The translations under genes and the position numbers were made by a program. DNA of 64,000 nucleotides from an uncultured bacterium (lineage in GTDB: Bacteria; Patescibacteriota; Microgenomatia; UBA1400; PJMF01): NCBI GenBank assembly GCA_963544615.1, contig CAUUGB010000001.1, forward strand, positions 10,388 through 74,387, given 5' to 3'. The first letter of the stretch is position 1, and every line of letters starts with the position of its first letter. Under the pieces are notes generated by a model that was not told where the DNA came from, ran no database searches, and saw nothing but the letters and a program-made list of their open reading frames with translations. Positions 8,239 through 47,029 of the stretch are shown here, one piece after another.

Positions 8239-8465
8239 CTACTCCTTTAAGTAACCGTGAGCGTTTAATTTTACCATTGGCTAACACTGTGGCTGTTTTG
8301 GTGGTTTTGCTTTATTTATATTTAATTTCTTCGGCGGCACCTTTTTGGCAAACTGCGCCGTCATTACCACTGGAGCCCAATTTGCTTGCTAGTGAGAGCG
8401 CTACTTTAAGCTCCTCAGGTTCTTCTCACACTTTGCCAGCTTTAGATAACAGTTCCCAGCAATAA
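8235..8465 (+). CDS. Small membrane protein translationally coupled to secF.
   Basis: Its ATG overlaps the secF TGA stop (ATGA). The 77-aa product has one TM helix (VAVLVVLLYLYLISSAAPF) and a Ser-rich tail. Confidence 0.3.
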   Translation: MTTPLSNRERLILPLANTVAVLVVLLYLYLISSAAPFWQTAPSLPLEPNLLASESATLSSSGSSHTLPALDNSSQQ

Positions 8466-8660
8466 AGTTTTTGGCAGATTTTAGGTACCATGAGCGGCAG
8501 GAGTAGCTGTACTTCTTGATGACGCCACTCCTTTTTGCCACTAGTTTTTGGTGGCAGCCACTTGGAGTTTTTTATCAGTTTAAGAGGGTAATAATTTGGT
8601 GCAGATAAGTTTTTATATCACATTCATACTTTGATGTCTGCTTTATGTTAAAATAATCAT

Positions 8661-22824: not shown

Positions 22825-22839
22825 AGAATTATATTTTGA

Positions 22840-22863
22840 CCCCGGGTGACCCCGGGGTTTTTT
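22840..22863 (+). terminator. Rho-independent terminator
   Basis: CCCCGGG-tgac-CCCGGGG followed by T6, 16 nt after the stop. Confidence 0.8.
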
Positions 22864-23044
22864 GTGGTGCTAGCAGATAAACTACTAGCAAGTAATTTTC
22901 CGTTTTCTCCAGTGATGAGATGTGACTCGGTGCTTTGGCAAAATGCTACTTGATTTTCTCGGGAGAAGTGTTTATAGTTAAAGCAACCTTAAAATTGGTT
23001 AGTTTAGTATTTTACTCGCCAACAGTTGAGGTTAAAGTAAATTA

Positions 23045-31754: not shown

Positions 31755-32982
31755 ACAGTCTCCTACCCCCACTACCACTCAGTCTGCAGGTTTATTGGCA
31801 ATCATGCAAGCTTACAGTTGGAGTGTTTACTTTTTTTGCCTGCTACTTTTAGCGGTGGTTTTTAGTAAAACTTTTTTGGGGGAATATCCTTTTGATGTTA
31901 GTGAAGTTTTAATTGCCATGCACGAATTTAGCGGGGGGTTGCTCAGCAATGGGATAGTTGCTGGGTTTTTGTTTTTAGTTTCTTTAGTACCGATAGCGAT
32001 TATGGCTGCCTTAATTCACTCTCAAGGCAAAAAAATTACCGCTGTCAAGCTTACTTCTGCCAACTGGCGAGTACGGCTTTTTTTAGCGCTCTTGTTAGGG
32101 GGTACTTTTTTACTTCATTTACTGCCCACTTTTTCTTGCGCTAATCCTATGTGTGATTATTTACCGGTGGTGGCCAGTTTTCCTGGTTTGCCTTTGGGGG
32201 TGGCTTTAGCCACCACTGTCGATGGTTGGGCTAGCGCTCAGGGTGGGGTGTGGGCACAGCTAGATTATCGCTTTTTAACTATTCTCCCGAATGCTTTGTT
32301 TTTGTTGGTTCTCTCTTTTTATTTTCTCACTCCTAAAGCCCAGTTGCCGCGCTTAATTCGCTCACGTTTGCTGCTTTGTTTGGGTTTGCTGATACTAGTT
32401 TTAGGTTTGCTGGTTTTTTATCTTTATTACTTGTCGCAAATAGTTTTTACTTTAAGTGATAATGATTTAGCCGATTTATTAAATCAGCACGCTCCAGCGC
32501 AAGTGGTAGAAGATTTTCATTTTCAAATTGGTGATGTCCTCATTCATCGTCCCAAAGAAATTGGTCAAGATTTAGTGACTAAATTAAGTGGTACCAATTT
32601 ATCGCATACCGATACTTATTGCGGTGAGAATGAGTTAATCAATGGCAATGGTGATAATTTTTTTCAAACTGGAGGAATTAATATTGATAAGCTTGAGTGG
32701 CAACAGCGTTATGTGCGTGGTTCATTGCCACTGACGGTAGTTTTACGCCATCCCGATCCGCAGGTAGGAGCACAGTTGTGTGCCAAGCTGCGTCGTGCGG
32801 TTAGTGATCCCAAAATTACTTTTGGGGTAGATTTGCTTAATAAGCGGCAAACTTTTAACTGTTCTAATATGGTGTATTATTATTTATATCCCCAAGCGCC
32901 CAATTTTAATTTAGTCACTCCCGATTTACTGTTTGTCACCATGCTCCAGCATGACTGGCGCTTAGTTAATTGGACTAACTAA
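31747..32982 (+). CDS. Polytopic membrane protein fused to a C-terminal permuted papain-fold (YaeF/YiiX, C92 / LRAT-like) domain.
   Basis: About six TM helices in the first 240 aa. The C-terminal domain carries GDVLIHRP, SHTDTYCG and FNCSNMVYYY. These match the Gly-Asp, His and Cys-Ser motifs in the order typical of YaeF/YiiX permuted NlpC/P60 proteins. It overlaps the adenylating-enzyme gene by 8 nt. Confidence 0.5.
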   Translation: MNKQSPTPTTTQSAGLLAIMQAYSWSVYFFCLLLLAVVFSKTFLGEYPFDVSEVLIAMHEFSGGLLSNGIVAGFLFLVSLVPIAIMAALIHSQGKKITAVKLTSANWRVRLFLALLLGGTFLLHLLPTFSCANPMCDYLPVVASFPGLPLGVALATTVDGWASAQGGVWAQLDYRFLTILPNALFLLVLSFYFLTPKAQLPRLIRSRLLLCLGLLILVLGLLVFYLYYLSQIVFTLSDNDLADLLNQHAPAQVVEDFHFQIGDVLIHRPKEIGQDLVTKLSGTNLSHTDTYCGENELINGNGDNFFQTGGINIDKLEWQQRYVRGSLPLTVVLRHPDPQVGAQLCAKLRRAVSDPKITFGVDLLNKRQTFNCSNMVYYYLYPQAPNFNLVTPDLLFVTMLQHDWRLVNWTN

Positions 32983-33018
32983 AATGATGATTATCAAATA
33001 GATATTAAGGAAAAATCA

Positions 33019-33906
33019 ATGAAAAAATCTGTATCATCACCGTCAACTAGTTCTGCCAGCGGTTCCTTGTTAGCGGGCAAAAAAAAAGTTAAAAAAGCAG
33101 CCAAAAAAAATCTTTCTAGTTCAACTACTAACACTGACAGCAAAAAAAATCTGCCCCCCAAAAAAAGTGGTCAGCTGTTTTTTTTAGTTTTAGCTTTAGC
33201 ACTTTTGTTTGCAGTGGCTTGGCGGTTGAAAGGGGGGCTAAATTTAACCAAACCCAGTCAACCCAGCACTCCCTCTGCCGATGAGATAGAAAGCTATGAT
33301 ATTTATGAGGTGGAGGCAGAAATCCTTGAGCAAGAGGCCACCCTTTACAATGATTATTTTGCCTTTAGCTACACACTGCCACCTAGTTACGCTGTTTATG
33401 AATGGTGGGAGCATAATTTAGCTAAAGAGCCGGGTGAAACTGGGCGCTTATCTCAGTTTGAGTTTACCAATGAGGATGGTGAGAGAGATAGTGAGAGTAG
33501 CCCCAATAGTGAGCAAAAATTTATTAGTTTTATTGCTTATGGTAATAAGCGCTACTCCCAGCTGGAGGATCATTTTGATGTCATAGTGGACGCAATTAAA
33601 ATTGCCGGCGCAGATAATCAGGAAACTTTTTTAGACCTTTACGAAAAGAATTTAATTTTTGGGCAAAAATTAGCCGAGGACTATTTGTTGGAGAAAAAAA
33701 CTCCCCTGCAGCTTGCTGGTAGAGATTGGGCGCAGCGCCTTTACCAGAGCGTGGGTGATGAGCGACCAATTTATTTGCTCCGTCTTGCCACACCACTTAA
33801 AAATGGTTATTTTTTGGTGATGCAATCTACTTATTGGGCCAACAATCCTCAGGCTTATGAGCAAGTATTAGCTCATTTTGCTCAAAGCATTAAGTTTAGT
33901 GAGTAA
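33019..33906 (+). CDS. Membrane-anchored hypothetical protein with a Lys/Ser-rich cytoplasmic N-terminus.
   Basis: Basic low-complexity N-terminus, one TM helix (LFFLVLALALLFAVAW), then an acidic soluble domain. It precedes the pilin cluster. Confidence 0.45.
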   Translation: MKKSVSSPSTSSASGSLLAGKKKVKKAAKKNLSSSTTNTDSKKNLPPKKSGQLFFLVLALALLFAVAWRLKGGLNLTKPSQPSTPSADEIESYDIYEVEAEILEQEATLYNDYFAFSYTLPPSYAVYEWWEHNLAKEPGETGRLSQFEFTNEDGERDSESSPNSEQKFISFIAYGNKRYSQLEDHFDVIVDAIKIAGADNQETFLDLYEKNLIFGQKLAEDYLLEKKTPLQLAGRDWAQRLYQSVGDERPIYLLRLATPLKNGYFLVMQSTYWANNPQAYEQVLAHFAQSIKFSE

Positions 33907-34024: not shown

Positions 34025-34609
34025 ATGATTATGCTTAAAAGAAGCGCTGCATTTACACTAATTGAATTAATGGTGGTAGTGGCTATTATTGCTATTTTAT
34101 CTACTATGGGGGTAGCAAATTTTTCCACCGCCATTAAGCGCTCGCGTAATGCGGTGCGGCAGAATGATGTCTTGGCGGTAAGTAAAGGTTTGGAAGCTTG
34201 TTATGATGTAATGAGTGCGAGGTATTTAAATCCAGCAGGTGGTGCAGCCACTGATTGCCATAAACCATATGAAAGCACTATGACCGGCGGTGCTAATGGA
34301 GTGTTTAAAGCAGATAGTAAAGGTGATCAGTCTTGTCAAAATCGTTGTCTCAATCAGGATATAAAGCCCAATATGAATAATCATAATTATACGGCATTAG
34401 TAGGATTGGTTGATAGTGCAGAAAAGTTTGTTATTTGTGCCAAGTTAGAAAACGTTGGCAATGTGGAAAGCATTGGTAACTCTAAAACAGATTTAGCAGC
34501 ATTGCCTAATATTGAGACGGCAATCGAAACATTGTCAAATTCTACTAATAAGTGTGATGCTGGTGGCGGTACCGGTGGGTGCTTTTTCTGCGTTACTTCT
34601 TCACAATAA
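34025..34609 (+). CDS. Type IV pilin (prepilin-type N-terminal cleavage/methylation domain), a candidate major pilin.
   Basis: KRSAA|FTLIELMVVVAIIAIL class III signal with Glu at +5. The C-terminal region has Cys pairs. A strong promoter lies upstream and a strong terminator follows. Confidence 0.8.
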   Translation: MIMLKRSAAFTLIELMVVVAIIAILSTMGVANFSTAIKRSRNAVRQNDVLAVSKGLEACYDVMSARYLNPAGGAATDCHKPYESTMTGGANGVFKADSKGDQSCQNRCLNQDIKPNMNNHNYTALVGLVDSAEKFVICAKLENVGNVESIGNSKTDLAALPNIETAIETLSNSTNKCDAGGGTGGCFFCVTSSQ

Positions 34610-34635
34610 ATTAAATAAATTTAGCTAAAGCATTG

Positions 34636-34661
34636 CCCCCTCGCTAGCGAGGGGGTTTTTC
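34636..34661 (+). terminator. Rho-independent terminator after the first pilin gene
   Basis: CCCCCTCGC-ta-GCGAGGGGG followed by T5. Confidence 0.8.
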
Positions 34662-34691
34662 TTGACATACACCTGGAAATAATGCTAAAAT
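34662..34691 (+). promoter_or_regulatory. Promoter of the second pilin gene (extended -10)
   Basis: -35 TTGACA, 18-nt spacer, TGc-TAAAAT extended -10. The ATG at 34698 lies only about 6 nt past the -10, so the transcript is nearly leaderless. Confidence 0.55.
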
Positions 34692-34697
34692 GCTTTC

Positions 34698-35231
34698 ATG
34701 AAACACAAGCAAGCCTTCAGTTTAATTGAATTAATGGTGGTTATTAGTATTATTGCGGTTTTGGCAGCCATGGGGGTGGCTAATTTTGCCACTGCAATTA
34801 AAAAATCTCGCGACTCGGTGCGCAAAAGTGAACTGGCTGAATTAACTCAAGCGCTGATGATGTTTCGGGCAGATTGGGGTTCGTATCCATATCGCTATGG
34901 TATGGATGCAGTAAGGCTGACATCAACAGCCATTTTAAATTACGAAGAGCCAGCCAGTAATCCTGTTAAAACACATGAACTAGTTCCTGATTATATCCGC
35001 TCCATGCCTACCGATGAAGCACGTGTTAGTGAGAGTGAGCAATATACTTATAAGTGCATCACGCCAAAAGAGGTCATCATTGATGGTGTAACTTATTGGC
35101 GCTGTGTTGATTTTAGCGTTTGCGCTTATTTAGAAGTGCCGCAGGTGAGTGGGGCAAATGCTAAAGATGGGATAGGTACTCCTTGTCTCAATCCCAACGA
35201 TTGCAAATGGTTTTGTATGTATAGTCCGTAA
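34698..35231 (+). CDS. Type IV pilin (prepilin-type)
   Basis: KQA|FSLIELMVVISIIAVLAAMG N-terminal domain with Glu at +5. C-terminal Cys residues are present. Confidence 0.8.
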   Translation: MKHKQAFSLIELMVVISIIAVLAAMGVANFATAIKKSRDSVRKSELAELTQALMMFRADWGSYPYRYGMDAVRLTSTAILNYEEPASNPVKTHELVPDYIRSMPTDEARVSESEQYTYKCITPKEVIIDGVTYWRCVDFSVCAYLEVPQVSGANAKDGIGTPCLNPNDCKWFCMYSP

Positions 35232-35236
35232 AGTTC

Positions 35237-36178
35237 ATGCCTCAGTCATTTTGCCGCTATCCTCGCTCTGCTTTCACCTTAATTGAGATTTTAATTGTGG
35301 CAGTGATTTTTAGTATTCTTTCACTGGCAGTGGGGCGGTTTTTAATTACTTTCTTAAATTTAAAACTTAGTGCCGAGACAATTCAGCGCATCCGCCAAGA
35401 AGGCAATTATGCCCTCGACCAAATTGATTATTTACTCCGCAGTGGCTTAACCATGCCCGATGTGTGTGTAGGCAGAATTCGCCCGGCTAATCCTCCCTCC
35501 GGCTTTGATTTGCATCACGATCTTCAAGCAGTCAAAGATAATCCTGATCCTAACAACATCATGCCTGCGCCATGTGTTGAGGAGCCAAAAGATCCTGATC
35601 CTCTTAGTGTCATAACCAAAGAACCTATTCACTGTGAACTTAATCCCACTCCTCAGCCCGGCTTCAGCTACTCATCTTATCACTCCAAAATTTATGACAC
35701 TTGCCAAGAAAAATGTCATGTTTATGATCAACTGCGCACCAACACTCAGGGGTTAGATCAGGTTTATTTTGTGCGCAATTTAGTGGCATTAGCAAATTGT
35801 GATGGCAGTGGTGGTAGTAGTGGATGCCGGCAGCCGTCCTCACCTGATGAGGTATCCAGTTTATATTTATTTCGCAGTTTGGCGGCTGACCGGCGTCATG
35901 ACGATTTTGACGACTTTGCCCGTAGTCCTCAGGTGCAAAGAATTCCCTTAACTAATTGGCGCACTGGAGTTGGGGGTGAACCCTTTTCAGTAAATAATTT
36001 GCGCTTTTATTGTTTTTTTGATTATTTTGCCAACAGCTATGTGGTACACACTTCTTTTGACATCACTTATCAGCGCCAATCTTTAAGTGGTCGGTTGCAA
36101 CAAGTTGGCACCAAGCGAATTAATGAGCGCTTTGAGCGCTTGAGTGTGGTGCGCAATCCTTACCCTTTTGAATACTAA
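35237..36178 (+). CDS. Prepilin-type minor pilin / pseudopilin (313 aa)
   Basis: RSA|FTLIEILIVAVIFSIL N-terminal methylation-domain motif. It has a large divergent C-terminal domain. Confidence 0.65.
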   Translation: MPQSFCRYPRSAFTLIEILIVAVIFSILSLAVGRFLITFLNLKLSAETIQRIRQEGNYALDQIDYLLRSGLTMPDVCVGRIRPANPPSGFDLHHDLQAVKDNPDPNNIMPAPCVEEPKDPDPLSVITKEPIHCELNPTPQPGFSYSSYHSKIYDTCQEKCHVYDQLRTNTQGLDQVYFVRNLVALANCDGSGGSSGCRQPSSPDEVSSLYLFRSLAADRRHDDFDDFARSPQVQRIPLTNWRTGVGGEPFSVNNLRFYCFFDYFANSYVVHTSFDITYQRQSLSGRLQQVGTKRINERFERLSVVRNPYPFEY

Positions 36179-36253
36179 AGTTGGGGTTATTATTAACCAT
36201 TAAACTCCAGCTAAACTAACAGCTGGTAAATCTTTGTTAACAATTAATATTGT

Positions 36254-36934
36254 TTATGGAGAAGTCAGACAAGAGCCGTTATAAGGTAATTCATTGGTAA
36301 TGTCTTGGCTAAATTTTTGAGCCACCTGCACTTGTTTATTGTTGCCTTTATAATCTTGATATTGCACGGTTACCACCACGGTAACTTCTTGGGCAGTACC
36401 TGACCCTGACATAAATTTTAAGCGAACTTGGTATTGACCGTGATAACCCAGCTTAAAGTTAGGGTTATTGTCAACCTTGGGTTGACCGCAAATGGTGTCG
36501 TTAACATTACCCCTTGTCTGCCTGCTCCATTCGGTTGTATCAGTAAAAAAGTCTAGCACCGGTTTCTCTGCATACAGACCCGCTGGTCGATTAAGAATAT
36601 CGTAAGCGGGTAATTGATAGGGAAACTCACATTTAATTTCATCTGCCCATCCACTGTTAGGAGTAGTATACTCATTGCTTTTTCCGGCACATTGTTCCCA
36701 AAGCCGCTGGTAAAATTGCCACCACAACATCCCATCACGAGCGGTGCGCCAGCGCTCCAGGCAAGAATTGGCTTGGTCGACTGCCTTAGCCCGCAGCCGG
36801 GCGTCAATAATTACCCGCTGGGTATAAAAAATATTACTGGCTAAAGCTATGAGGACAAAAGAAATCAAGGTCACCGCCACTAGTATTTCAATCAGTGATA
36901 AAGCGCTTTGGTGTGAAGGAGTGGTTTTTAGCAT
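36254..36934 (-). CDS. Prepilin-type minor pilin (PilV/FimT-like)
   Basis: HQSA|LSLIEILVAVTLISFVL N-terminal motif with Glu at +5. Confidence 0.65.
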   Translation of the reverse strand: MLKTTPSHQSALSLIEILVAVTLISFVLIALASNIFYTQRVIIDARLRAKAVDQANSCLERWRTARDGMLWWQFYQRLWEQCAGKSNEYTTPNSGWADEIKCEFPYQLPAYDILNRPAGLYAEKPVLDFFTDTTEWSRQTRGNVNDTICGQPKVDNNPNFKLGYHGQYQVRLKFMSGSGTAQEVTVVVTVQYQDYKGNNKQVQVAQKFSQDITNELPYNGSCLTSP

Positions 36935-37593
36935 GTTTCTGTCTTACATCTCTCTATATTCTCACAAAAACAGCCGTGCGTAAAGGTGCCATTTTCTAGT
37001 AAAAATACATAATAGAGGTCGCCATCAGTTAAAATAAAACGAGCGTTAGCGTGTTTATGGTCAGTTTTCTCCTTTTCTGTGACGGGAGCAGATCCATTTT
37101 TCACATAAATTAAACCATATAAAGAATCAAAAACAAGCGTGTTGCCACCATTCTCATTGTGAATACTTAAGCCCACATCTTGAGGTAGGGTAAAATAGTG
37201 AGTTTTGTTAGTTTTCTCTTCATTAGCACCATCACGGTCTTTTTTACTGTAAAAATAAACTTTGGGTTCCAATTTACTACTCGTGTTACCGCTGTCAGTT
37301 GGAGGCAAGCCAGCAATCTGCCAATGACTCAATTTACACTCGCCTTTGGCGATAGTTGCTTCGTCGGCTGAACTGCAAGATTCTTCACCCCCACCACGAT
37401 TACCCAGACGAGCTTTTTGAGCCATACTGTTAAAATAAACAATTAATTCTCTGGCGGTATTTTCCAGTCGCTGGCGGTCGCGTACTTTTAGATAGTTAAC
37501 CAGTCCCACGGTGAGCAAAAAAACCACAATGGCAACTACGGCTAAAACTTCCACTAAGCTGTACCCTGCCTTCTTGCCCTGCATGAGCATCAT
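36928..37593 (-). CDS. Prepilin-type minor pilin
   Basis: KKAG|YSLVEVLAVVAIVVFLL N-terminal motif with Glu at +5. It overlaps the downstream pilin gene by 7 nt. Confidence 0.65.
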   Translation of the reverse strand: MMLMQGKKAGYSLVEVLAVVAIVVFLLTVGLVNYLKVRDRQRLENTARELIVYFNSMAQKARLGNRGGGEESCSSADEATIAKGECKLSHWQIAGLPPTDSGNTSSKLEPKVYFYSKKDRDGANEEKTNKTHYFTLPQDVGLSIHNENGGNTLVFDSLYGLIYVKNGSAPVTEKEKTDHKHANARFILTDGDLYYVFLLENGTFTHGCFCENIERCKTETC

Positions 37594-37706
37594 TCTAGCA
37601 TTCTCTCCCAGCGCTTGTCAAGCGATTACGCCTGGAAAACTCAGTTTCTCCAGATAATAAGTGCTCACTCATCTTGGTAACAATTTGATATAATACCCAA
37701 AGAGGG

Positions 37707-38750
37707 GTGGGGGTGGTGCAATTTTTTACTGCTGCCGCTAACAAGTTATTTAAGGGTGCTGTTATGTTAACTAAACACTTAGGGAAATTATTATTGTGTT
37801 TAATCACTACTCTGGGAGTGAGTTGGTGGTTTGGTGGCTACTCTCTGCTTGCTCAAGCTGCTCCTTTATCCGCTGGGGTGGCTGATTTGGCGCCAACTTT
37901 TAGAGCGCAAATAGAAGCTAGTGCCAGCACTCAAAGTAGTAATTTGGGTGCTAGTCACGCTGCTTTGGTGGTTAATCCCGACGCCACTCAAGTAATTTTA
38001 GAAAAGAAAAATCAAGATTTAACTGAGGTAACCAGTAGCAAAACGGTGGAGTTAGCCACCCAACTTTTAGAAAAACCAGAGTCAGATATCAAGTGGTATC
38101 ACTTTATGCAAAGCTGGATTAGGCGGGCAATTACCAATGGTTTGCCAAGCAATTTGCTCACTTTGCTCATTTTGTTTCCCATTGTGGCCACCATTATTGC
38201 CTTTTCACGTCACGTTTTGGGTTTGCGCGGTTTTGGCATTTACGCCCCAGCCACCCTAGCCATTGCTTTTCTTTCTACCACTATTACCATGGGAGTAATT
38301 ATGTTTGTGTTTATTGTTTTAGCCACAGTTATCTCTGGGCGAATTTTGCGCCATCTTAATTTGGCTCATTTGCCTAAATCTGCCTTAACCATTTGGTTAG
38401 TGTGTGTTCTAGTGATTGCTTTGCTTTTGGTGATGGCTAATTTACATGTAGAAGAATTTTATGCCCTCACCATTTTGCCTTTGCTGTTTTTGGTTTCTTT
38501 AGCAGAAAACTTTACCAGCACCCAGCTGATGTCCTCCACCAGAGAAGCAGTGCGCTTAACGGTGGAGACAATTTTTTTAGCGGTGATTTCTACTCTCATT
38601 ATTGGCTCCAATCCCATCAGAGTATTTGTCATCTTAAATCCGGAATTAAGTTTGCTGGCAGTGTTTGGGCTTAATTTGTTAATTGGCCGTTATACTGGTT
38701 TGCGCCTGACTGAATTGCTGCGCTTTAAGTTACTGGTAAAAAAGAAGTAA
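37707..38750 (+). CDS. Seven-TM membrane protein of the type commonly paired with RimK-like ATP-grasp ligases (7TM_transglut-like membrane module).
   Basis: An N-terminal roughly 140-aa extracytoplasmic segment is followed by seven hydrophobic helices. It lies 4 nt upstream of the ATP-grasp gene. The family assignment is by architecture and gene context only. Confidence 0.45.
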   Translation: MGVVQFFTAAANKLFKGAVMLTKHLGKLLLCLITTLGVSWWFGGYSLLAQAAPLSAGVADLAPTFRAQIEASASTQSSNLGASHAALVVNPDATQVILEKKNQDLTEVTSSKTVELATQLLEKPESDIKWYHFMQSWIRRAITNGLPSNLLTLLILFPIVATIIAFSRHVLGLRGFGIYAPATLAIAFLSTTITMGVIMFVFIVLATVISGRILRHLNLAHLPKSALTIWLVCVLVIALLLVMANLHVEEFYALTILPLLFLVSLAENFTSTQLMSSTREAVRLTVETIFLAVISTLIIGSNPIRVFVILNPELSLLAVFGLNLLIGRYTGLRLTELLRFKLLVKKK

Positions 38751-38754
38751 ATTT

Positions 38755-40050
38755 ATGGCTTGGCTGCAATTAAATACCCGCGAAATACTGGGAATGAATG
38801 CCAGAAATAGGCTTTATACCAGTAAAAACTCTAAGTTTGCTCGCAGCCTAGCTCATTCCAAATTTTTAACCAAGCAACTGATGAGTAAGCAAAATATTGG
38901 GGTGGCAAAAATTATTACAGTTTTAAAAAATCATGATGATGTTCATGATTTCAACTGGAATTGTTTGCAAGCTAACTTTGTGGTTAAGCCCAGTAATGGT
39001 TCTGGTGGTAAGGGGATTGTGGTTTTTAAGAAACAACTTGGCGATGGTGGTTTTGTGGATACCATTGGCAAAAAATGGACTCTAGAAGCCATTCAGTTTC
39101 ATTGTCTTGATATTTTGGAGGGTAAATTTAGTACTCATCCCGGAGTAGAGACGACAGTGATTTTAGAAGAGCGGGTAGAAGCGCACCCCTTACTGCAAAA
39201 ATATGCTTATAAAGGTACTCCCGATGTGCGGGTGATTGTTTACAACAGTGTTCCAGTGATGGCGATGTTGCGTTTGCCAACACGTGAAAGTGAGGGTCGG
39301 GCTAATTTACATCAAGGTGCCATTGGGGTGGGCATTGATTTAGACACCGGGTTAACTACTTATGCGATTACTGGGGCGGGGCGGGAGATTACCCATTTAC
39401 CTGAGAGTAAAAGAAAGCTTTCAGGAATTTTGGTGCCTTTTTGGGAACAGGCGCTGTTAACTGCCGTTAAAGCTGCCGGAGCTGCCAATCTCCTTTATGG
39501 GGGAGTTGATCTTTTTATTGATAAGCAAAAAGGTCCAATGGTGGTGGAGCTAAATACTAGCCCGGGACTTTCCATTCAATTAGCTAATCATCAGGGTCTT
39601 AAAAGAAGGCTAGAGCGTATTCACGATTTGCAGGTTTTAAGTCCGGAACATGGGGTGAGGATTTCTCGGGCGCTGTTTCGCTCTAATTTAACCGATTGCT
39701 TTATTGACCCTGCTTGTCGGGCAGAAATTTCGGTAGTTAATCCGGGGGAATTAATTTTGGGTAAAAGTAAAAAAGATCGCCTGCCAGTGAGTTTTTTTGT
39801 TAATACCCGGCGTTTTCGCTCCTCAATTTCTCAACAATTAGCTTTGGAGTTAGGGTGGCTGAAACCAGAGGATTTACTTTGGTATCAGCAAACCGAAACT
39901 GGCGAAAAAGCCCCAGTAATTGAGGTGAGCTTTGTGCTCAAGGGTAAAAAAATTAAAACTGAAATGTTGGTTTCCAAACAATTAGACAAAAGCAAAAATA
40001 AAGTTCATTTGGGCAGAAGAGATTTAGGTCAATTTTTGGTGAAAGCTTAA
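38755..40050 (+). CDS. RimK-like ATP-grasp ligase (alpha-L-glutamate ligase-related / 'sugar-transfer associated' ATP-grasp)
   Basis: Pre-ATP-grasp region KFLTKQLMSKQNIGVAKIITV. ATP-grasp motifs VVKPSNGSGGKGIVVF and VRVIVYN...MLRLP. There is an N-terminal extension of about 60 aa. Confidence 0.7.
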   Translation: MAWLQLNTREILGMNARNRLYTSKNSKFARSLAHSKFLTKQLMSKQNIGVAKIITVLKNHDDVHDFNWNCLQANFVVKPSNGSGGKGIVVFKKQLGDGGFVDTIGKKWTLEAIQFHCLDILEGKFSTHPGVETTVILEERVEAHPLLQKYAYKGTPDVRVIVYNSVPVMAMLRLPTRESEGRANLHQGAIGVGIDLDTGLTTYAITGAGREITHLPESKRKLSGILVPFWEQALLTAVKAAGAANLLYGGVDLFIDKQKGPMVVELNTSPGLSIQLANHQGLKRRLERIHDLQVLSPEHGVRISRALFRSNLTDCFIDPACRAEISVVNPGELILGKSKKDRLPVSFFVNTRRFRSSISQQLALELGWLKPEDLLWYQQTETGEKAPVIEVSFVLKGKKIKTEMLVSKQLDKSKNKVHLGRRDLGQFLVKA

Positions 40051-40895
40051 AGATTAGAGGGTTTTACTCGGGGAGCAGCCTTAAAAGTTAACAGGTGAAT
40101 TTTTGGTGGTGAGCCTAAGCGAAAATATGGCGGCACCGTGCCAATACCTGGTGACACTAACATCCGAGCTTGAGGAGTTTCAATCAGTCCCACGCGGTAT
40201 TCCCAGCGAGAAATTTTTTTGGGCAGCAAGGGAGTGTAACGGAACATATTTACTTGAGCGCCATGAGTGTGACCGGCCAAAACAAAATTAATGCCATCGG
40301 CACTGGTAATTTCATCAATAAAATTTGGCTGGTGTGCCAAGAGAATTTTGAAATCATTTTTTTTGGCTAACTTGTTGGCTTGTGCCAAATTAGGCTGACC
40401 ATACCAACTATCTGCCACCCCACTTAAAAAAATTCGCTCCTCACTGCGTCGCAATACTACTCCCTGATTATGGAGTACTTTAATGTGAGCTTGGGCAAAA
40501 GCCCGGATGACTTTGGGGGTGGGCAGACCATAATCGTGATTACCTAAAACTGCATAAATCCCTAAAGCTGGAGGTTGGAAGGCAGCTAAAATTGCCAAGA
40601 GTTGCTTTAAGTCTTTTTCTTGTTGGGTGAGACTGCGACGGAAGGTTTGTAAATAATCACCACCTAAAAGAATTAAATCGGGTTGAGTCTGATTAATTTT
40701 TTTCACCATTTTCTTCAGTCGCAGTTGCGAGGAAAAGCGACCATGATGAATGTCGCTAATAAAACAAACTTTCAGATTATTAAAACTTTTAGGCAACTTG
40801 GGGTCTTTAATAATTAATTGCTCTAGTGAGAGAGAAAAGGTTTCCCCAGCAATATATGAAGCCAGCATCCAGGTAGCAATGGTAGTGGGACTCAT
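40047..40895 (-). CDS. Calcineurin-like metallophosphoesterase
   Basis: Motifs ISDIHHG, GGDYL, LGNHDYG and GHTHGAQ (the D-x-H...GD...GNH[DE]...GH-x-H pattern). Confidence 0.8.
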   Translation of the reverse strand: MSPTTIATWMLASYIAGETFSLSLEQLIIKDPKLPKSFNNLKVCFISDIHHGRFSSQLRLKKMVKKINQTQPDLILLGGDYLQTFRRSLTQQEKDLKQLLAILAAFQPPALGIYAVLGNHDYGLPTPKVIRAFAQAHIKVLHNQGVVLRRSEERIFLSGVADSWYGQPNLAQANKLAKKNDFKILLAHQPNFIDEITSADGINFVLAGHTHGAQVNMFRYTPLLPKKISRWEYRVGLIETPQARMLVSPGIGTVPPYFRLGSPPKIHLLTFKAAPRVKPSNL

Positions 40896-41896
40896 AACTG
40901 ATTGGTTTGTTCAATAATTTTAATCACTTGATGAGCCATCACTTTTTCTTTGGCTAAAGCCGCCAAAAAAGCCAGTAAGGGGTAATTTTGCAGTGGGGCG
41001 ATTTGGGGTAAAACCTGCAAAGTATGAGCACTTTCGGCAGTTTTGCCTTGTTCTTTCATGGCAGCTACAGCAGCACTAAAGCGCTGCCCTTCACCTAAGA
41101 GAACGCCCAAATGATGGTTACGGGTGTCGCTGGTGGCAGACATCACCATATCATTGCCCCAACACTGTGAAGCAAAAGAGAAGGTTTGCTTTTGCGCCCC
41201 CAAACTTAAGGCAAGCTTTTCGCACTCACTGGCTAAAAGAGATAAACCATGAGTTTGCGTGCCGTAGGCAAAGCCCAAGCCCTTGAGGATGCCTACCAAT
41301 ACCGAAATGACATTTTTTAAGCTACTGGCATATTGTACGCCGACGACATCGCTAGAAAGTTGCACCCTCAAATAAGGGTTAGCAAAAATATTTTGCAACT
41401 TTTGCCCAATTTGCTGTTGCCCACAAGCAATGGTAGCCCCTAAATATTCTTCGCCAACCAAAGCGGCAGCAGTAGTGCCGCCAGCAAAAACTGCCGGTGT
41501 ATAGGGAAAATTACCTAGTACTTGTGCCATGGTGTCTGTGAGGGGTCTGCCGGTATTAACGCAGAGGGCTTTCATGGCCGAAAACAAGACCACTTGGGGG
41601 CGCAGGTGAGCTTGTAGTTGACTTAAAACTTCTTCTAGAGCAGTAGAGACCACTGCCAAAACGATAATTTGACAATTTTCTGCCAGCTGTTGGAGAGAAT
41701 TGGCAACTTGAAGATTAGCCGCCAAACTAATAGTGGGGAATAAACGGGGGTGGGTTTGGGTAGCTTGTAGCTGGGCGCGGACATCTGGATTGCGGTCATA
41801 TACCCACAATTGAACCTGATGGTTTTGTTGACGGCTTAAATGCGCTGCCAGTGCAAACCCAAAATTGCCCATACCCACAAAACCAACTTTAATCAT
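40892..41896 (-). CDS. gpsA: NAD(P)H-dependent glycerol-3-phosphate dehydrogenase
   Basis: KVGFVGMGNFGFALAAHL Rossmann motif. The 334-aa length and overall conservation fit GpsA. Confidence 0.8.
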   Translation of the reverse strand: MIKVGFVGMGNFGFALAAHLSRQQNHQVQLWVYDRNPDVRAQLQATQTHPRLFPTISLAANLQVANSLQQLAENCQIIVLAVVSTALEEVLSQLQAHLRPQVVLFSAMKALCVNTGRPLTDTMAQVLGNFPYTPAVFAGGTTAAALVGEEYLGATIACGQQQIGQKLQNIFANPYLRVQLSSDVVGVQYASSLKNVISVLVGILKGLGFAYGTQTHGLSLLASECEKLALSLGAQKQTFSFASQCWGNDMVMSATSDTRNHHLGVLLGEGQRFSAAVAAMKEQGKTAESAHTLQVLPQIAPLQNYPLLAFLAALAKEKVMAHQVIKIIEQTNQL

Positions 41897-42006
41897 GGTT
41901 TAATTATATCATTTTAAGTTGATTATCAATCATGCTAACGGATTTCGTACAGTGAATGAGATAGCAAAGTTATGTAATATTGATGTCATATTAGTGGAAA
42001 AAATTA

Positions 42007-43007: not shown

Positions 43008-43979
43008 ATGTCAGTTTTTCGTCGCTCCCAGCCATATTTGTGTTTGAGTCCCATGGATGGAGTGACTGATTCGCCCATGCGACAAATTTGCAAAAAGTAT
43101 GGTCGGGTGGATCTACTCACGAGTGAATTTGTTAATGTAGAGGGTTTGCATTTTGCCAGAGAGCGCTTGGCAAGTGAGTTGCAGTTTAGTCCCGGGGAAC
43201 AACCACTTTTACTGCAAATTTATGGTTTAAATCCAGAGTTTTTTGCTCAGGCAGCCACTCTGGGTTTACAACGCGGTTTTAGTGGTATTGATCTTAACTT
43301 TGGTTGTCCGGCTAAAAGTGTGGTGCATGCTGGAGCGGGAGCGGGCTTAATTGCCAATCCTCACTTGGCGCAAAAAATTTATCAAGCGGTGAGAGAAGCG
43401 GTAGACGCTTGGGCGGCTACTCACCCTGGAACCAAGCCGAGCTTAAGTATTAAAACTCGCTTGGGGGTAGATAAACCAGTGATTGACGAATGGTTTAGTT
43501 TACTGCTTTCTTGGCATCCCGATTTAATTACAGTTCATGGTCGCACTCTCAAGCAAGGTTACACGGGACAAGCCGACTGGCAGGCAATTGGGCAAGTGGT
43601 GGCTTTGCGCTCGCGTCTCTCGCCACAAACTGCCATTTTTGGCAATGGCGATGTTACTAGTCTTAAGCAAGCTTTAGCCCGGCAGCAGCAAACTGGTGTA
43701 GATGGAGTGGTGATTGGGAGAGCTGCTTTAGGTAATCCTTGGGTGTTTACCAGTCATCAGCCCACTTTATCAAAACGTCTTGAGGTGGCACTGGAGCATG
43801 CCCTGCTTTATGAGAAAACGTTTGCGCATCGGGCTAATTATCAATTTTACCCTATGAGAAAGCATTTAGCTGCTTATGCGCATGGTTTTCCTGGGGCTAG
43901 TTTGTTGCGACAGGAACTAGTTAATTGTGGCAACAGTCAACAGGTGGCGGCAGTTGTGAACCGATATCTGCTGTCTTAA
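43008..43979 (+). CDS. dusB: tRNA-dihydrouridine synthase
   Basis: Dus-family motifs LSPMDGVTDSPMRQICKKYG and DLNFGCPAKSV. TIM-barrel FMN-binding pattern. The length is 323 aa. Confidence 0.85.
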   Translation: MSVFRRSQPYLCLSPMDGVTDSPMRQICKKYGRVDLLTSEFVNVEGLHFARERLASELQFSPGEQPLLLQIYGLNPEFFAQAATLGLQRGFSGIDLNFGCPAKSVVHAGAGAGLIANPHLAQKIYQAVREAVDAWAATHPGTKPSLSIKTRLGVDKPVIDEWFSLLLSWHPDLITVHGRTLKQGYTGQADWQAIGQVVALRSRLSPQTAIFGNGDVTSLKQALARQQQTGVDGVVIGRAALGNPWVFTSHQPTLSKRLEVALEHALLYEKTFAHRANYQFYPMRKHLAAYAHGFPGASLLRQELVNCGNSQQVAAVVNRYLLS

Positions 43980-45478
43980 ATTTTTTTTGTTACTTTGTAT
44001 TCTAAATATTTGCCCATCATCAGTCGGGTGTGGGCGTCGAGTCCGGGCAAAGCGGTAAAGAAAAATCCGCAAATTGGCAACAGCACAAATTCCAGTGGTT
44101 GCATGATAATAGATAACCACTTGTGTTGGTGCGGTCGGGGAGGGCGATTAAGGGCGTCAATAATCATAATGGCAAAAAGAGAAATTAAAGCAATGGTGAG
44201 TAGAAAAGATGACACTTGAGGGAGAGTTTTGCCAATGGTGGTGCGATTGAATTCTTGATTTAGTAGTGGTGGCAGCAGAGCGGAAACGGTAATAGCAAAC
44301 CAGTTGACTGGCCAGAGAAAATGATCCTCAATCACTTTGATAATCCGCACAAACCTGTCACCAAAAGGAATGTCGTCGTTGATAATAAATTGTTTAATAA
44401 TGTAGGCATCATCAGAAACACCCCAAGCCCAGCGTTTTAATTGCTCGTATTGATTAATCATGGTACCCCAAAAAGTATCAGTTTCAGGCATATCGGCATA
44501 AATGGGTAAAAAAATTGGGTGCACCGAAAAATTCCCTTTTTTGGCAAAATAAGATTTGAAAAAAAAGCGGTAGTCTTCGGGAATTACATTGGTATCCCAA
44601 AAACCAATTTCATTCATGTGTTTCAGACTAGTAGAATAGGTAGAAAAATTAATTAAGCGATCGCGCCGCATTAAAATATACATTTGATTAACCGAAAAAG
44701 TTGCCCCCAAAACTCTAATCACTGCTGGCACTTTCCAAATATTGTTGTAAAAAACAATACATCCTTGCCAAGTAGCATGATAGCGATCACTGCTTTGTAA
44801 AAAATCAAAAGTTAAATTACTAAAATAGTGGTGATGAAAAATAGCATCGGCGTCTTCGGAAGTAATGGTGATATTTTCTATGGGAATACCGGCTTTATCT
44901 ACCAAAAGTTGTTTAGCTTTTTTACCCCCCCAAGCATTATTGCTTGATTTACCCTTAACTTCACCTTCAATGTCGGGGTGAAAAGTGGTCCACAAATGAC
45001 CAAAACAGTGGCGATAATTTTTTTTCAGCCAAGTGGCTTTTTTGACTGCCGCCTCACCTTCGCGCTGTTCAAAGCTAATCATAATGTGTAAGTTTTGGGT
45101 GGGAAAGGATTGCTGACTTAAATGTTTGAGAGTGCGCTCCAGGGTGCTTAAAGGTTCAGTGTAGGTGGGAATAATAATTAGGTGATGAATTAACTGATAT
45201 TTTTTGGGGAAATGTTTTTTAAGATCTTTGAGCCAATCATTACGACTGCTGGCTTGAAGGCGAAAATGAGCAAAAAAAGCTAAAAAGGCTAAAACAGCAG
45301 AGCGATATAACCAGTAAACCGTAAAGGCAATTACATAGTATGCCACCAGTTGTGGACACAAAAATGAACCCCAAACTGGAAAAGAAATTAAAAACCAAGC
45401 GAAACATCCGGGTAAAATTTCTAAAAATTTTTGCGTTCGCACGGGGTGGCGCAAAAAATAGTCTTTCACTAGTTTCAT
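43976..45478 (-). CDS. Membrane-embedded processive family-2 glycosyltransferase (cellulose/chitin/PNAG-synthase-like)
   Basis: N- and C-terminal TM bundles. GT2 motifs IIIPTYTEP and TSEDADAIF, and the processive Q-x-x-R-W motif (QYEQLKRWAWG). Confidence 0.7.
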   Translation of the reverse strand: MKLVKDYFLRHPVRTQKFLEILPGCFAWFLISFPVWGSFLCPQLVAYYVIAFTVYWLYRSAVLAFLAFFAHFRLQASSRNDWLKDLKKHFPKKYQLIHHLIIIPTYTEPLSTLERTLKHLSQQSFPTQNLHIMISFEQREGEAAVKKATWLKKNYRHCFGHLWTTFHPDIEGEVKGKSSNNAWGGKKAKQLLVDKAGIPIENITITSEDADAIFHHHYFSNLTFDFLQSSDRYHATWQGCIVFYNNIWKVPAVIRVLGATFSVNQMYILMRRDRLINFSTYSTSLKHMNEIGFWDTNVIPEDYRFFFKSYFAKKGNFSVHPIFLPIYADMPETDTFWGTMINQYEQLKRWAWGVSDDAYIIKQFIINDDIPFGDRFVRIIKVIEDHFLWPVNWFAITVSALLPPLLNQEFNRTTIGKTLPQVSSFLLTIALISLFAIMIIDALNRPPRPHQHKWLSIIMQPLEFVLLPICGFFFTALPGLDAHTRLMMGKYLEYKVTKKI

Positions 45479-45521: not shown

Positions 45522-45935
45522 ATGGCAAAAATTGCAATTCATCCGGGTTTAGATCTTAAACTCTCCGGCAAGAAAAAAAAGCTCCCCATTATTAGAGCTT
45601 ACTATCGCCCCTTTTTCTTTGCTGCCCTGCCAGCCAATATTTTGTCGCTGACTTTAGCGGTGGTTTTTTTTAAGTTTTTACCTCCGGTAATTCCCCTTTT
45701 AGGTAGTGTTTTAGATCGTCAAGAACGCTTGGTAGATAAAATTTGGATTTTTACTTTGCCGGTTATTGCCACCGTGATTAATTTGGTACATGCAGGGGTG
45801 ATTTATTTTGGTCGCAAGCACAAAGTTACTTTGCTGAGGATTTTTGGTTTAATCACGGTTTTTATTCAGCTGTTACTTTTGGCAGTGTTGCTGCGCTTAA
45901 TTTTGGTTTTGCTTCCCTTGGGAGGACTGCTGTGA
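45522..45935 (+). CDS. Small polytopic membrane protein (4 TM) upstream of the WecA/MraY-family gene.
   Basis: 137 aa. Overlaps the next gene by 4 nt. Confidence 0.4.
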   Translation: MAKIAIHPGLDLKLSGKKKKLPIIRAYYRPFFFAALPANILSLTLAVVFFKFLPPVIPLLGSVLDRQERLVDKIWIFTLPVIATVINLVHAGVIYFGRKHKVTLLRIFGLITVFIQLLLLAVLLRLILVLLPLGGLL

Positions 45936-47029
45936 TATTGGCAGCAGCTGGACAACCATACTTAATTATAGCCACTTTATTTTTAGCTTATGCGGCAGTG
46001 TGGTGGCTCACCCCTTTAGTGATTAAATTATATCGCTGCTGTGGTTGGGACAAACCTCATCAAGGTGAGCGGCAAAAAATTAAAGATACGCATGTGGGTA
46101 ATTTACCGCGAGGTGGTGGTTTAGCCATTGGTGGGGGGTTATTTGCGGTGATTATTGCCGGGGCAATTATTGCCCCCGCATATTTTCTTTTTCCTTGGGT
46201 GGGAGAAGAGTTAGCCGCTACTCATGACGGTTTGCAGTTGGTGCTGAGTATTTACGCTGGAGCTTTAATTTTTATTTTTTTGGGTTGGGGCGATGATGTC
46301 CATGATTTAAGTCCCCTATTTCGTTTAGGGGTGAATGTAGTGGTGGCGCTACTGTTGTGGCGGGCTGGTTTAAGCATTGATTTTGTTACCAATCCCCTGG
46401 GTAGTGGGGTGTGGCATCTTAATCAGGTACCTTTTTTAGCCGCTTTGCTGACGGTAATTTATTTTGTGGCCATGGTTAATATTACCAATTGGGCTAAAGG
46501 AGTTGATGGACAACTGCCGGGAGTGGTGGTGATTGCGGCAATTTTTATTAGTGTGGTGTCATTTCGTTTAACTGGTAAACTCAATTACAATTTGCTTTTG
46601 GGAGCGCTGGTGGCGGGTGGTTATGCAGGTTTTTTGCATTGGAATTTTTTCCCCCAAAAAATTTTACCTGGGTTTGGAGCTGGGGCTTTGGCGGGATATT
46701 TTTTAGCCGTGCTGTCTATTTTAGTGGGGGCGAAGTTAGCTACTTTGTTTATGGTTTTAGCTTTGCCAATTGCTGACGCCATCTTTACAATTTTGCGTCG
46801 CATTCATGCTGGTAAATCAATTTTTTTAGGAGATAGAGGGCATTTACACCACAAGCTTTTAGATAAGTTGGGTTGGAGTCGGCGGCAGATTGCTTTATTT
46901 TACTATGCGGTAACTTTAATTATGGGGGTGCTGGCACTGCTGCTGCCTACTGGGGGTAAAATTATCGCTTTTGCTTTAGTGTTGCTATTGGTTTTTTACT
47001 TTTTAATTTGGGTAAAATTGCACCCTTAG
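45932..47029 (+). CDS. Polyprenyl-phosphate N-acetylhexosamine-1-phosphate transferase (WecA/MraY family, GT4-like)
   Basis: Motifs LGWGDDVHDL (DDxxD), NITNWAKGVDGQLPG and HLHHKLL in a 10-11-TM protein. Confidence 0.75.
   Translation: MILAAAGQPYLIIATLFLAYAAVWWLTPLVIKLYRCCGWDKPHQGERQKIKDTHVGNLPRGGGLAIGGGLFAVIIAGAIIAPAYFLFPWVGEELAATHDGLQLVLSIYAGALIFIFLGWGDDVHDLSPLFRLGVNVVVALLLWRAGLSIDFVTNPLGSGVWHLNQVPFLAALLTVIYFVAMVNITNWAKGVDGQLPGVVVIAAIFISVVSFRLTGKLNYNLLLGALVAGGYAGFLHWNFFPQKILPGFGAGALAGYFLAVLSILVGAKLATLFMVLALPIADAIFTILRRIHAGKSIFLGDRGHLHHKLLDKLGWSRRQIALFYYAVTLIMGVLALLLPTGGKIIAFALVLLLVFYFLIWVKLHP

Follow-up and report, generated by a model that had tools for sequence, protein, structure and literature searches.

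A putative RloC-type ATP-grasp ligase with a fused retropepsin-like pseudo-protease domain, paired with a reduced RloB-like membrane protein in a Patescibacteria genome

We analyzed a two-gene locus in a stretch of 64,000 nucleotides (nt), hereafter the window, from an uncultured bacterium of the candidate phyla radiation (CPR; Patescibacteriota, Microgenomatia; contig CAUUGB010000001.1, positions 10,388 to 74,387). The first gene encodes a seven-transmembrane (7TM) protein and the second an ATP-grasp ligase. The C-terminal 106 amino acids (aa) of the ligase, overlooked in an earlier note on this DNA, form a predicted degenerate retropepsin domain; no other feature of the locus is as informative. 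Table 1 lists the features.

A gap of exactly 4 nt lies between the two genes, as the earlier note had stated: the TAA stop codon of the 7TM gene (38748-38750) is followed by attt and the ATG of the ligase gene. The coordinates confirmed this spacing. That note was also right that a metallophosphoesterase gene converges on the pair; it matched PF00149 on the minus strand, and its stop codon and that of the ligase gene overlap by 4 nt. The assignment of the pair to the class of 7TM proteins with RimK-like ATP-grasp ligases was supported by profile search, in which PF14402 and PF14397 were far above their gathering cutoffs. The ligase motif quoted there, VVKPSNGSGGKGIVVF, is encoded at 38980-39027. 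The 7TM protein is present as the 347-aa open reading frame (ORF) claimed, and the size is likely to be revised. In the alignment, 33 homologues start at the position of an internal Met of the window protein, so the true start is likely the ATG at 37764 rather than the GTG at 37707. A purine stretch containing GGG is located upstream of this ATG, and TGATATAAT was read by eye as an extended -10-like element at 37685-37694. The scan for consensus promoters and terminators was at background, with 10 promoter-like sites against 8.5 expected.

Table 1 Features of the locus (positions within the window).
Feature	Position	Strand	Remarks
Pilin cluster: five ORFs with an N_methyl prepilin motif	34025-37593		Upstream of the 7TM gene
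7TM protein, mechanical ORF	37707-38750	+	347 aa, GTG start; PF14402
RloB-like 7TM membrane protein without transglutaminase domain, likely start	37764..38750	+	328 aa from ATG 37764
Extracytoplasmic N-terminal region of the 7TM protein (predicted)	37764..38147	+	Signal-peptide-like hydrophobic start, disordered linker, conserved segment
7TM core and conserved cytoplasmic C-terminal amphipathic helix (predicted)	38148..38747	+	Helix G-R-Y-T-G-L-R..E..R-F
RloC-type ATP-grasp amidoligase with C-terminal retropepsin-like pseudo-protease (predicted)	38755..40050	+	431 aa; PF14397
ATP-grasp catalytic domain	38803..39624	+	Ligase residues 17-290; PF14397
C-terminal retropepsin-like domain, putative degenerate RimB/RloA (PF05618) member	39730..40047	+	Ligase residues ~326-431
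Degenerate active-site motif V-N-T-R-R-F-R-S	39799-39822	+	Residues 349-356; replaces [IV]-D-T-G-A-x-R-S
Metallophosphoesterase, calcineurin-like, membrane-anchored, YaeI/LpxG-like	40047..40895	-	282 aa; PF00149; neighbour only
gpsA, NAD-dependent glycerol-3-phosphate dehydrogenase (GpsA)	40892-41896	-	Overlaps the phosphoesterase gene by 4 nt

We compared the ligase with domain and protein-family profiles. PF14397 (ATPgrasp_ST) was matched with an E-value of 4.1e-61 (207.1 bits; cutoff 31.4), and the alignment covered positions 3-277 of the 278 positions of the profile. A secondary match to the RimK domain was detected (E 9e-17). The best NCBIfam match was TIGR02291, 'alpha-L-glutamate ligase-like protein', over profile positions 4-297 of 317, and the ligase shared 37% identity (E 9e-56) with the RloC-type 'alpha-L-glutamate ligase-like protein' of Legionella adelaidensis. 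Scores were far below the curated NCBIfam cutoffs for RimK, S6-glutamate ligase, glutathione synthetase, Ddl and cyanophycin synthetase; for example, TIGR00768 (RimK) gave 61.5 bits with a cutoff of 143.4, and NF007764 (S6-glutamate ligase) gave 32.3 bits with a cutoff of 331. The housekeeping identity that had been named as the outcome that would refute the class assignment was thus not supported for RimK, glutathione synthetase and Ddl. By sequence comparison, the ligase appears to be a divergent member or relative of the RloC-type/TIGR02291 family, its closest family.

The hallmarks of a competent ATP-grasp enzyme, namely the Gly-rich ATP loop, the conserved Lys and the Asp/Glu/Asn triad of Mg ligands, are all found in the ligase. 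The Gly-rich loop is VVKPSNGSGGKG, and the Mg-ligand triad D252/E265/N267 is intact. The segments GVD..VVELN and RANLHQG align with GVD..VMEVN and RSNLHRG of E. coli RimK, respectively. Because the loop, RANLHQG and the triad align with RimK and are invariant across 42 ligase homologues, the ligase looks catalytically competent.

Pfam coverage of the ligase stops at residue 290, yet the homologues are uniformly ~425-430 aa long. The region from residue ~326 to 431 is conserved, and nine of its residues are invariant across the 42 homologues; T351, R355, S356, W376, P387, G420 and R421 are invariant residues. Single-sequence searches of Pfam (E ≤ 10) and the PDB with the C-terminal 146 aa returned nothing. 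Searching PDB sequences with a full-length ligase profile and a C-terminal clade profile detected no protease, the sole near-threshold matches being spurious homeobox ones (E ~0.2), and 9 of 20 C-terminal domains gave weak matches to retroviral-type aspartyl protease families. The AlphaFold2 (AF2) model of the domain had a predicted local distance difference test score (pLDDT) of 93.3 and a predicted template modelling score (pTM) of 0.84. In a Foldseek search against the PDB, all 39 matches with E ≤ 1e-3 were retropepsin-like, with TM-scores of 0.5-0.63; they included the RVP domains of Ddi1, Rickettsia APRc, retroviral proteases, RloA (9g58), RloA2 (9g59) and Legionella Lpg0085. The model thus predicts the single-lobe retropepsin beta-barrel fold of clan AA.

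More distant relatives whose orthologous domain carries the canonical DTGA motif link the domain to a family. Their domains matched PF05618 (Zn_protease; RimB/RloA) in 10 of 10 cases tested, with a best E-value of 1.5e-11. A profile of the DTGA-bearing relatives matched the structures of RloA2 and RloA (4.4e-8 and 1e-4, respectively) and also the profile of the window-clade domain (99.8% probability, E 1.6e-28). The domain profile found only 187 clusters among 1.84 billion representatives, indicating a small lineage.

In the window, DTGA is replaced by NTRR and N350 stands at the position of the catalytic Asp. The D-T/S-G-A sequence of an active aspartic peptidase is therefore absent from the motif V-N-T-R-R. 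RloA D48N has been used as a catalytically inactive control (PMC11957051). Because the catalytic Asp corresponds to N350 and RloA D48N is inactive, the domain is almost certainly not a protease, judging from its sequence and this analogy. The ratio of non-synonymous to synonymous substitution rates (dN/dS) was 0.044 for the pseudo-protease domain and 0.079 for the ligase domain against the closest relative, the one comparison used, in which synonymous sites are near saturation; they are saturated beyond it. These values indicate that the dead domain is not decaying and is under purifying selection.

The 7TM protein matched PF14402 (7TM_transglut) with an E-value of 2.2e-26 (93.3 bits; gathering cutoff 25), residues 149-343 aligning with profile positions 54-247 of 248. 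The RloB model of NCBIfam (NF052267) gave 72 bits against a cutoff of 900 and aligned only at its membrane half (positions 314-507 of 508). BLASTP comparison of the core with the Legionella RloB-type protein gave 30% identity (E 2e-18) and likewise covered only Legionella residues 314-507. The protein is thus not a full-length RloB as defined by NF052267, which includes the inactive transglutaminase domain. Its N-terminal 152 aa had no Pfam match at E ≤ 10 and no match in a single-sequence PDB search. The transglutaminase-like domain that the earlier note had proposed to look for in the N-terminal 140 aa was not found by Pfam search (E ≤ 10) or alignment, and the AF2 model shows disorder there.

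The N-terminal region occupies the place of the inactive transglutaminase domain of RloB. Its linker is rich in Ala, Ser and Thr and varies in length among homologues. The sole conserved part of the region in the alignment is a helical segment preceding the first transmembrane helix (TM1), which reads ..ILEKKNQDLTE.. in the window (consensus, IQEKKDQDITE). In the AF2 model, pLDDT was below 50 at residues 34-69 and 80-94 in the membrane core. The predicted topology is N-out and C-in, with a cytoplasmic tail ending in ...LVKKK. The loop after TM1 is conserved (S-R-H..G-L-R-G-F-G), and this loop and the C-terminal helix are likely a docking surface for the ligase. Polar or charged intramembrane residues of the core (E248/N249 and E268/T269) are also conserved.

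To examine conservation, we collected 86 related loci (L001 and following), six by exact-protein look-ups and 80 from species-representative genomes. All 86 belong to Patescibacteria/CPR (labeled Woesebacteria, Shapirobacteria, Pacebacteria or Microgenomates), and the closest relatives include a metagenome-assembled genome (MAG) from goat jejunum. The 7TM gene lies beside the ligase gene in 85 of the 86 loci, with measurable gaps of -38 to +114 nt, and the C-terminal retropepsin-like domain is present in 84, the exceptions being truncated. Homologues of the N_methyl pilins occur near the pair in only 2-3 loci. The phosphoesterase and gpsA genes occur near it in seven, all in the subclade of the window, and rmuC lies between the ligase and phosphoesterase genes in six of these seven. 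This difference in adjacency makes the pair a strict unit of two genes, to which the pilin and phosphoesterase genes are bystanders. The expectation that the pair would be conserved as neighbours elsewhere was therefore confirmed. The earlier note had also tied the pair to the pilins and the phosphoesterase. Five pilin genes are indeed adjacent, but surface modification has no comparative support. The phosphoesterase does not belong to the unit: it is convergent and forms its own operon with gpsA. Many of the MAGs bearing the pair have genomes of CPR size and a gene content of CPR type, yet their titles read 'uncultured Pseudomonadales' or 'uncultured Gammaproteobacteria' (e.g., L074, OZ246419.1, an 810,692-bp 'chromosome'); these titles are probably placeholders or errors.

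The related loci fall into groups that differ in the state of the protease motif and in the partner genes. The canonical DTGA clade comprises 43 loci, 39 of which have enough flanking sequence; none has a gene of the MATCAP carboxypeptidase family, and one to three extra RimK-type ATP-grasp genes lie downstream in 37 of the 43. These extra ATP-grasps form one cluster (C2; RimK, E 1.6e-28; e.g., L051 7321-9173, L073 7275-10010 and L078 7429-9397), which suggests that the ancestral form was a multi-ligase peptide-building operon. In the degenerate-motif clade (N/K/H-T-G-R or D-T-[GK]-R; 38 loci with enough flank), a MATCAP gene (PF08014) is immediately downstream in 30, often overlapping by 4 nt, and further ATP-grasps are present. 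Loci of the MATCAP clade are L003, L005, L006 and L011-L059; in L003, the 7TM gene is at 6034-6993 and the MATCAP gene at 8281-9234. The window and its seven relatives form a subclade with a degenerate motif and with neither MATCAP nor extra ligases. Within the 64-kb window, we found no MATCAP, no second ATP-grasp and no active retropepsin.

The MATCAP family is defined by the metal-binding and catalytic motifs HExxxH and EEGLA (PMC10499314), and the CPR homologues keep these at ≥90%, so that the carboxypeptidase of the sister clade is apparently active. MATCAP enzymes trim C-terminal Glu/Tyr and shorten polyglutamate chains, and RimB and RloA cleave poly-Glu (RloA, PMC11957051); by analogy, the chemistry would be the same. 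Of 33 MATCAP-clade loci, 27 encode a 7TM protein with an acidic C-terminus (typically ...IEEEE); the proportion is 1 of 42 for the DTGA clade and three of seven for the relatives of the window, with a background of 11% among neighbouring genes. Fisher tests on these tails describe a clade-level pattern and ignore kinship. In a neighbour-joining (NJ) tree of the ligase domain rooted on the Legionella ligase, the DTGA forms were basal and paraphyletic, the degenerate forms were one clade, and the subclade of the window was nested inside it. We rejected the 39:0 versus 0:30 split between motif and MATCAP as strong independent evidence, since the tree reduces this clade-level pattern to about two events. 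The trait correlations would correspond roughly to motif decay with gain of MATCAP and an acidic tail, followed by a loss. By this sequence-based reconstruction, the peptidase, the additional ligases and the acidic tail all appear to have disappeared from the subclade of the window, and no member of the family is more reduced or less informative than the window copy.

The system was compared with those already described. The RloABC operon, which occurs in Pseudomonas aeruginosa and in further Gammaproteobacteria (Lormand et al. 2025, PMC11957051 / PMC12239564), has the same three modules as the CPR system: a 7TM_transglut protein (RloB), an ATPgrasp_ST/TIGR02291-like ligase (RloC) and a PF05618-family retropepsin (RloA). 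In both, the ligase gene directly follows the 7TM gene. The differences are that RloB has a ~300-aa periplasmic inactive-transglutaminase domain, which the window protein lacks; that RloA is a separate secreted protein with a signal peptide, whereas the window retropepsin is fused to the C-terminus of a cytoplasmic ligase; and that RloA has the catalytic Asp where the window domain has NTRR. Furthermore, 96% of RloB hits are in Proteobacteria (PMC11957051 / PMC12239564), and the host here is a CPR bacterium. A plasmid of L. adelaidensis (L087, NZ_LR134414.1, 3005-7018) carries a small RimB/RloA-type gene and a gene for an inactive transglutaminase family protein, followed by that for an alpha-L-glutamate ligase-like protein; this cluster is a canonical rloABC-type operon. 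Two C1-family (papain-like) peptidase genes converge on the Legionella operon, a different peptidase type beside an Rlo-type ligase.

RimK-RimB and the hybrid RimBK (Little et al. 2025, PMC11957791) resemble the window in coupling a cytoplasmic ATP-grasp glutamate-type ligase to a RimB-family retropepsin. RimBK is found chiefly in Flavobacteriales and Rhodobacterales; its retropepsin lies at the N-terminus, is an active protease and is joined to a true RimK with no 7TM partner (PMC11957791). In the window, the domain is C-terminal, degenerate and joined to an RloC-type ligase whose constant partner is a 7TM protein. In eukaryotes, the cycle at the tubulin tail sets TTL/TTLL ATP-grasp ligases against MATCAP/TMCP carboxypeptidases (PMC10499314). 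Its counterpart in the sister CPR clade would be the ATP-grasp operon, a MATCAP with intact HExxxH/EEGLA and an encoded oligo-Glu tail on the 7TM protein. By analogy, the sister clade resembles a glutamylation/deglutamylation cycle of the tubulin-tail kind acting on a bacterial membrane protein, whereas the window has no MATCAP gene in 64 kb and no acidic tail.

Comparative genomics has also described 7TM and RimK-like ATP-grasp systems (PF14402, PF14397), and the window agrees with them in adjacency and in both families. It differs in having no inactive transglutaminase module and in having an extra fused pseudo-retropepsin. The prediction of such systems reportedly originated with Iyer, Abhiman, Burroughs and Aravind in 2009, and the Pfam description of PF14402 presumably predicts that the ATP-grasp modifies the 7TM module.

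Based on these results, we propose that the locus encodes a reduced, CPR-specific Rlo/Rim-type ATP-grasp ligase that is docked at the membrane, probably uses glutamate, and carries a fused retropepsin that is now a pseudo-enzyme. We give this proposal an even chance of being correct. The 7TM and ligase genes would be co-transcribed and probably translationally coupled, and the ligase would dock at two conserved cytoplasmic sites, the loop and the C-terminal helix, of the 7TM protein, which may act as a scaffold, an acceptor or an exporter. The ligase would use ATP to add alpha-linked amino acids, most probably L-glutamate, because RimB and RloA cleave poly-Glu and the sister clade has MATCAP and encoded Glu runs. 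The acceptor may be a C-terminal carboxylate, or the product may be a free oligo- or poly-glutamate chain made at the membrane. The pseudo-protease domain would no longer cut this product. It may have been kept because it binds and stimulates the ligase as RimB does, and/or because it holds the acidic product or makes the enzyme dimerise. Retropepsins are obligate dimers, so the domain may dimerise the ligase. RimB binds RimK and stimulates its ATPase activity and poly-alpha-Glu synthesis by a factor of about four; hybrids of RimB and RimK occur in nature (PMC11957791). By analogy, a non-proteolytic role of the dead domain is plausible.

Several results weigh against this proposal. The added amino acid and the acceptor are assigned indirectly, by analogy with related systems, and the TIGR02291 score of the ligase (243.1 bits) was under the curated cutoff of 314.2. 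The name of the Pfam family, 'sugar-transfer associated', leaves room for a non-peptide acceptor. The 64-kb window contains no peptidase partner, so a cycle of ligase and peptidase cannot be closed there, and the 7TM tail is basic (...VKKK), unlike that of the Glu-tailed sister clade. Fold comparison of the 7TM protein gave no convincing transporter relative, which makes an export role speculative. The C-terminal domain of the window ligase itself has no Pfam match at E ≤ 10, including PF05618, and comparison of the window-clade domain with the Legionella RloA-type protein was not significant (hhalign, E 0.11). The putative assignment to the RimB/RloA family is therefore drawn from the fold and from transitive homology through the DTGA-bearing relatives. 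The Lys at -2 of the catalytic Asp and a D-R pair near the C-terminus are conserved in those relatives, and RloA residues in the context of the catalytic motif have been reported to coordinate poly-Glu (PMC11957051). Both the Lys and the D-R pair are replaced in the window, so binding of an acidic chain by this domain is not assured. This weakens the idea of an acidic-chain holder relative to that of a ligase activator or dimeriser.

We then weighed other explanations of the pair. The substrate could be the cytoplasmic C-terminal tail of the 7TM protein itself, extension of which would regulate 7TM function. The excess of acidic ends over background in the sister clade, the adjacent carboxypeptidase there that acts on C-terminal tails, and the endings KKD, KED or KKE in the three acidic relatives of the window are in line with this explanation, but the window tail ...LVKKK has no terminal carboxylate-bearing side chain, DTGA-clade tails are basic too, and the tail correlation is essentially one clade-level event; we consider it unlikely. 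Because the window tail is basic and no trimming enzyme is visible in 64 kb, the ligase of the window could equally well make free oligo- or poly-glutamate, or act on some other acceptor that the 7TM protein presents. That the ligase amidates a non-protein acceptor which the 7TM protein handles, for instance a carboxylated sugar or a lipid-linked envelope precursor, seems quite improbable. The ATPgrasp_ST family is its best Pfam family, polar and charged residues are conserved inside the membrane core, and envelope genes (Glycos_transf_4 and a 500-aa membrane protein) are nearby. On the other hand, every characterised partner in the lineage is peptide-directed (RimB/RloA-type retropepsins and MATCAP carboxypeptidases), and clustering of 83 loci found no glycosyltransferase among the conserved neighbours.

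It is very unlikely that the ligase modifies the pilins or other surface structures of the adjacent type IV pilin-like cluster. The five pilin-like genes are directly upstream, the closest relative is arranged alike, and other clades have different small membrane or surface proteins upstream (T4SS_pilin in 19 loci and Phage_holin_4_2 in 22). Nevertheless, the arrangement is confined to the 2-3 loci mentioned above, the two nearest pilin genes are on the opposite strand, and neither the window pilins nor the T4SS pilins and holin-like proteins have the acidic C-termini that RimK-like ligases need. CPR genomes are dense in pilin genes, so chance adjacency is expected. There is hardly any likelihood that the 7TM protein, the ligase and the metallophosphoesterase make up one functional three-gene module: the phosphoesterase gene abuts that of the ligase and lies close to the pair throughout the eight-member subclade, yet it is convergent and hence not co-transcribed, overlaps gpsA by 4 nt on the same strand, is separated from the ligase gene by rmuC in most relatives, and is absent from the other 79 loci. 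Least probable of all is a housekeeping RimK responsible for the glutamylation of ribosomal protein S6, with an incidental pairing to the 7TM gene. The RimK-domain match, and the fact that RimK structures are the best solved-structure sequence matches, agree with it, but the scores are far under the RimK cutoffs, the ligase is much closer to the RloC-type family, and the 7TM gene is an invariant immediate neighbour.

The neighbouring genes were also surveyed. The phosphoesterase is a generic Metallophos member (PF00149, E 2.6e-16, 61 bits; cutoff 21.5) and scored below the curated cutoffs of LpxG (111 bits versus 350) and YaeI (99.8 bits versus 188). In L001, a relative with 88% identity, a gene for a 712-aa YcaO-nitroreductase fusion of the RiPP (peptide made on ribosomes and modified after translation) cyclodehydratase/dehydrogenase type lies between gpsA and a DUF2268 gene (L001 13461-15599). 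The window has only ~110 nt (41897-42006) at this site, so the two close relatives differ there by an indel as large as a gene. A Pfam-less multi-pass membrane protein of 500 aa (43976-45478, minus strand) adjoins a Glycos_transf_4 (MraY/WecA-type) gene (45932-47029, plus strand) a few kb from the pair; the two are possibly envelope-synthesis genes.

On the pilin side, a promoter close to the consensus (TTGACA, 18 nt, TG-n-TAGAAT; 11 of 12 positions matching) lies on the minus strand at 37592-37621. It ends at the annotated ATG of the pilin-like gene at 36928-37593, which implies a leaderless transcript or a later start at a Met in MMLMQ. An ORF of 1856 aa and several ORFs of 300-490 aa (24456-30026, 21355-24493 and 31747-33906) are just upstream of the pilins and had no Pfam match at E ≤ 1e-3. 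An AMP-binding (acyl/aryl-adenylating) enzyme gene at 30045-31754 is flanked by these Pfam-less ORFs, and L001 is arranged alike. In the DTGA clade, 19 Shapirobacteria-type loci have four to five T4SS_pilin (PF18895) paralogues of ~110 aa, arrayed in tandem and located divergently upstream; for example, in L053, L063, L071, L078 and L084 they lie ~1-2.5 kb upstream of the 7TM gene on the opposite strand. A Phage_holin_4_2 gene is directly upstream of the pair in 22 MATCAP-clade loci. Thus, three different small membrane-protein families flank the pair in the three clades.

A broader and doubtful scenario can be drawn for the CPR Microgenomates as an Rlo-type lineage with stepwise replacement of the trimming enzyme. 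An active RimB/RloA-type retropepsin would have been fused, inactivated and functionally replaced by MATCAP at the node where the 7TM protein gained an encoded oligo-Glu tail. This would be a bacterial cycle like that of the tubulin tail and a candidate prokaryotic antecedent of the TTLL-MATCAP pairing. The subclade of the window would have been stripped to the ligase, the pseudo-protease and the 7TM protein, the dead retropepsin serving purely as an allosteric activator or chain-holder of a membrane-docked poly-alpha-glutamate synthase.

The class of system is already known from its Pfam families and from RloABC in Pseudomonas, as is a ligase-retropepsin fusion in the opposite domain order. 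New here are an RloB core without the transglutaminase domain, a putative RloA/RimB-type domain at the C-terminus of an RloC-type ligase, the natural inactivation of the fused retropepsin with its retention under selection, and occurrence in CPR; in the relatives, the association with MATCAP and Glu-tailed 7TM proteins is new. An annotation of the pair should no longer link it to the pilins or the phosphoesterase and should describe the ligase as a two-domain protein.

The fusion, read as a Rosetta stone, argues that an RloC-type ligase and an RloA/RimB-type retropepsin share both a compartment and the molecule on which they act. The minimal RloB suggests that the transglutaminase domain is dispensable for the partnership of ligase and 7TM protein. 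A naturally dead protease under selection supports a non-proteolytic role, as for RimB with RimK, and the Glu-tailed, MATCAP-bearing sister clade points to a testable substrate, the 7TM protein's own tail. In Pseudomonas, RloB and RloC have been connected with tolerance of antibiotics, formation of biofilms and osmotic stress, and the CPR variant may serve as a set of natural 'experiments' on their function.

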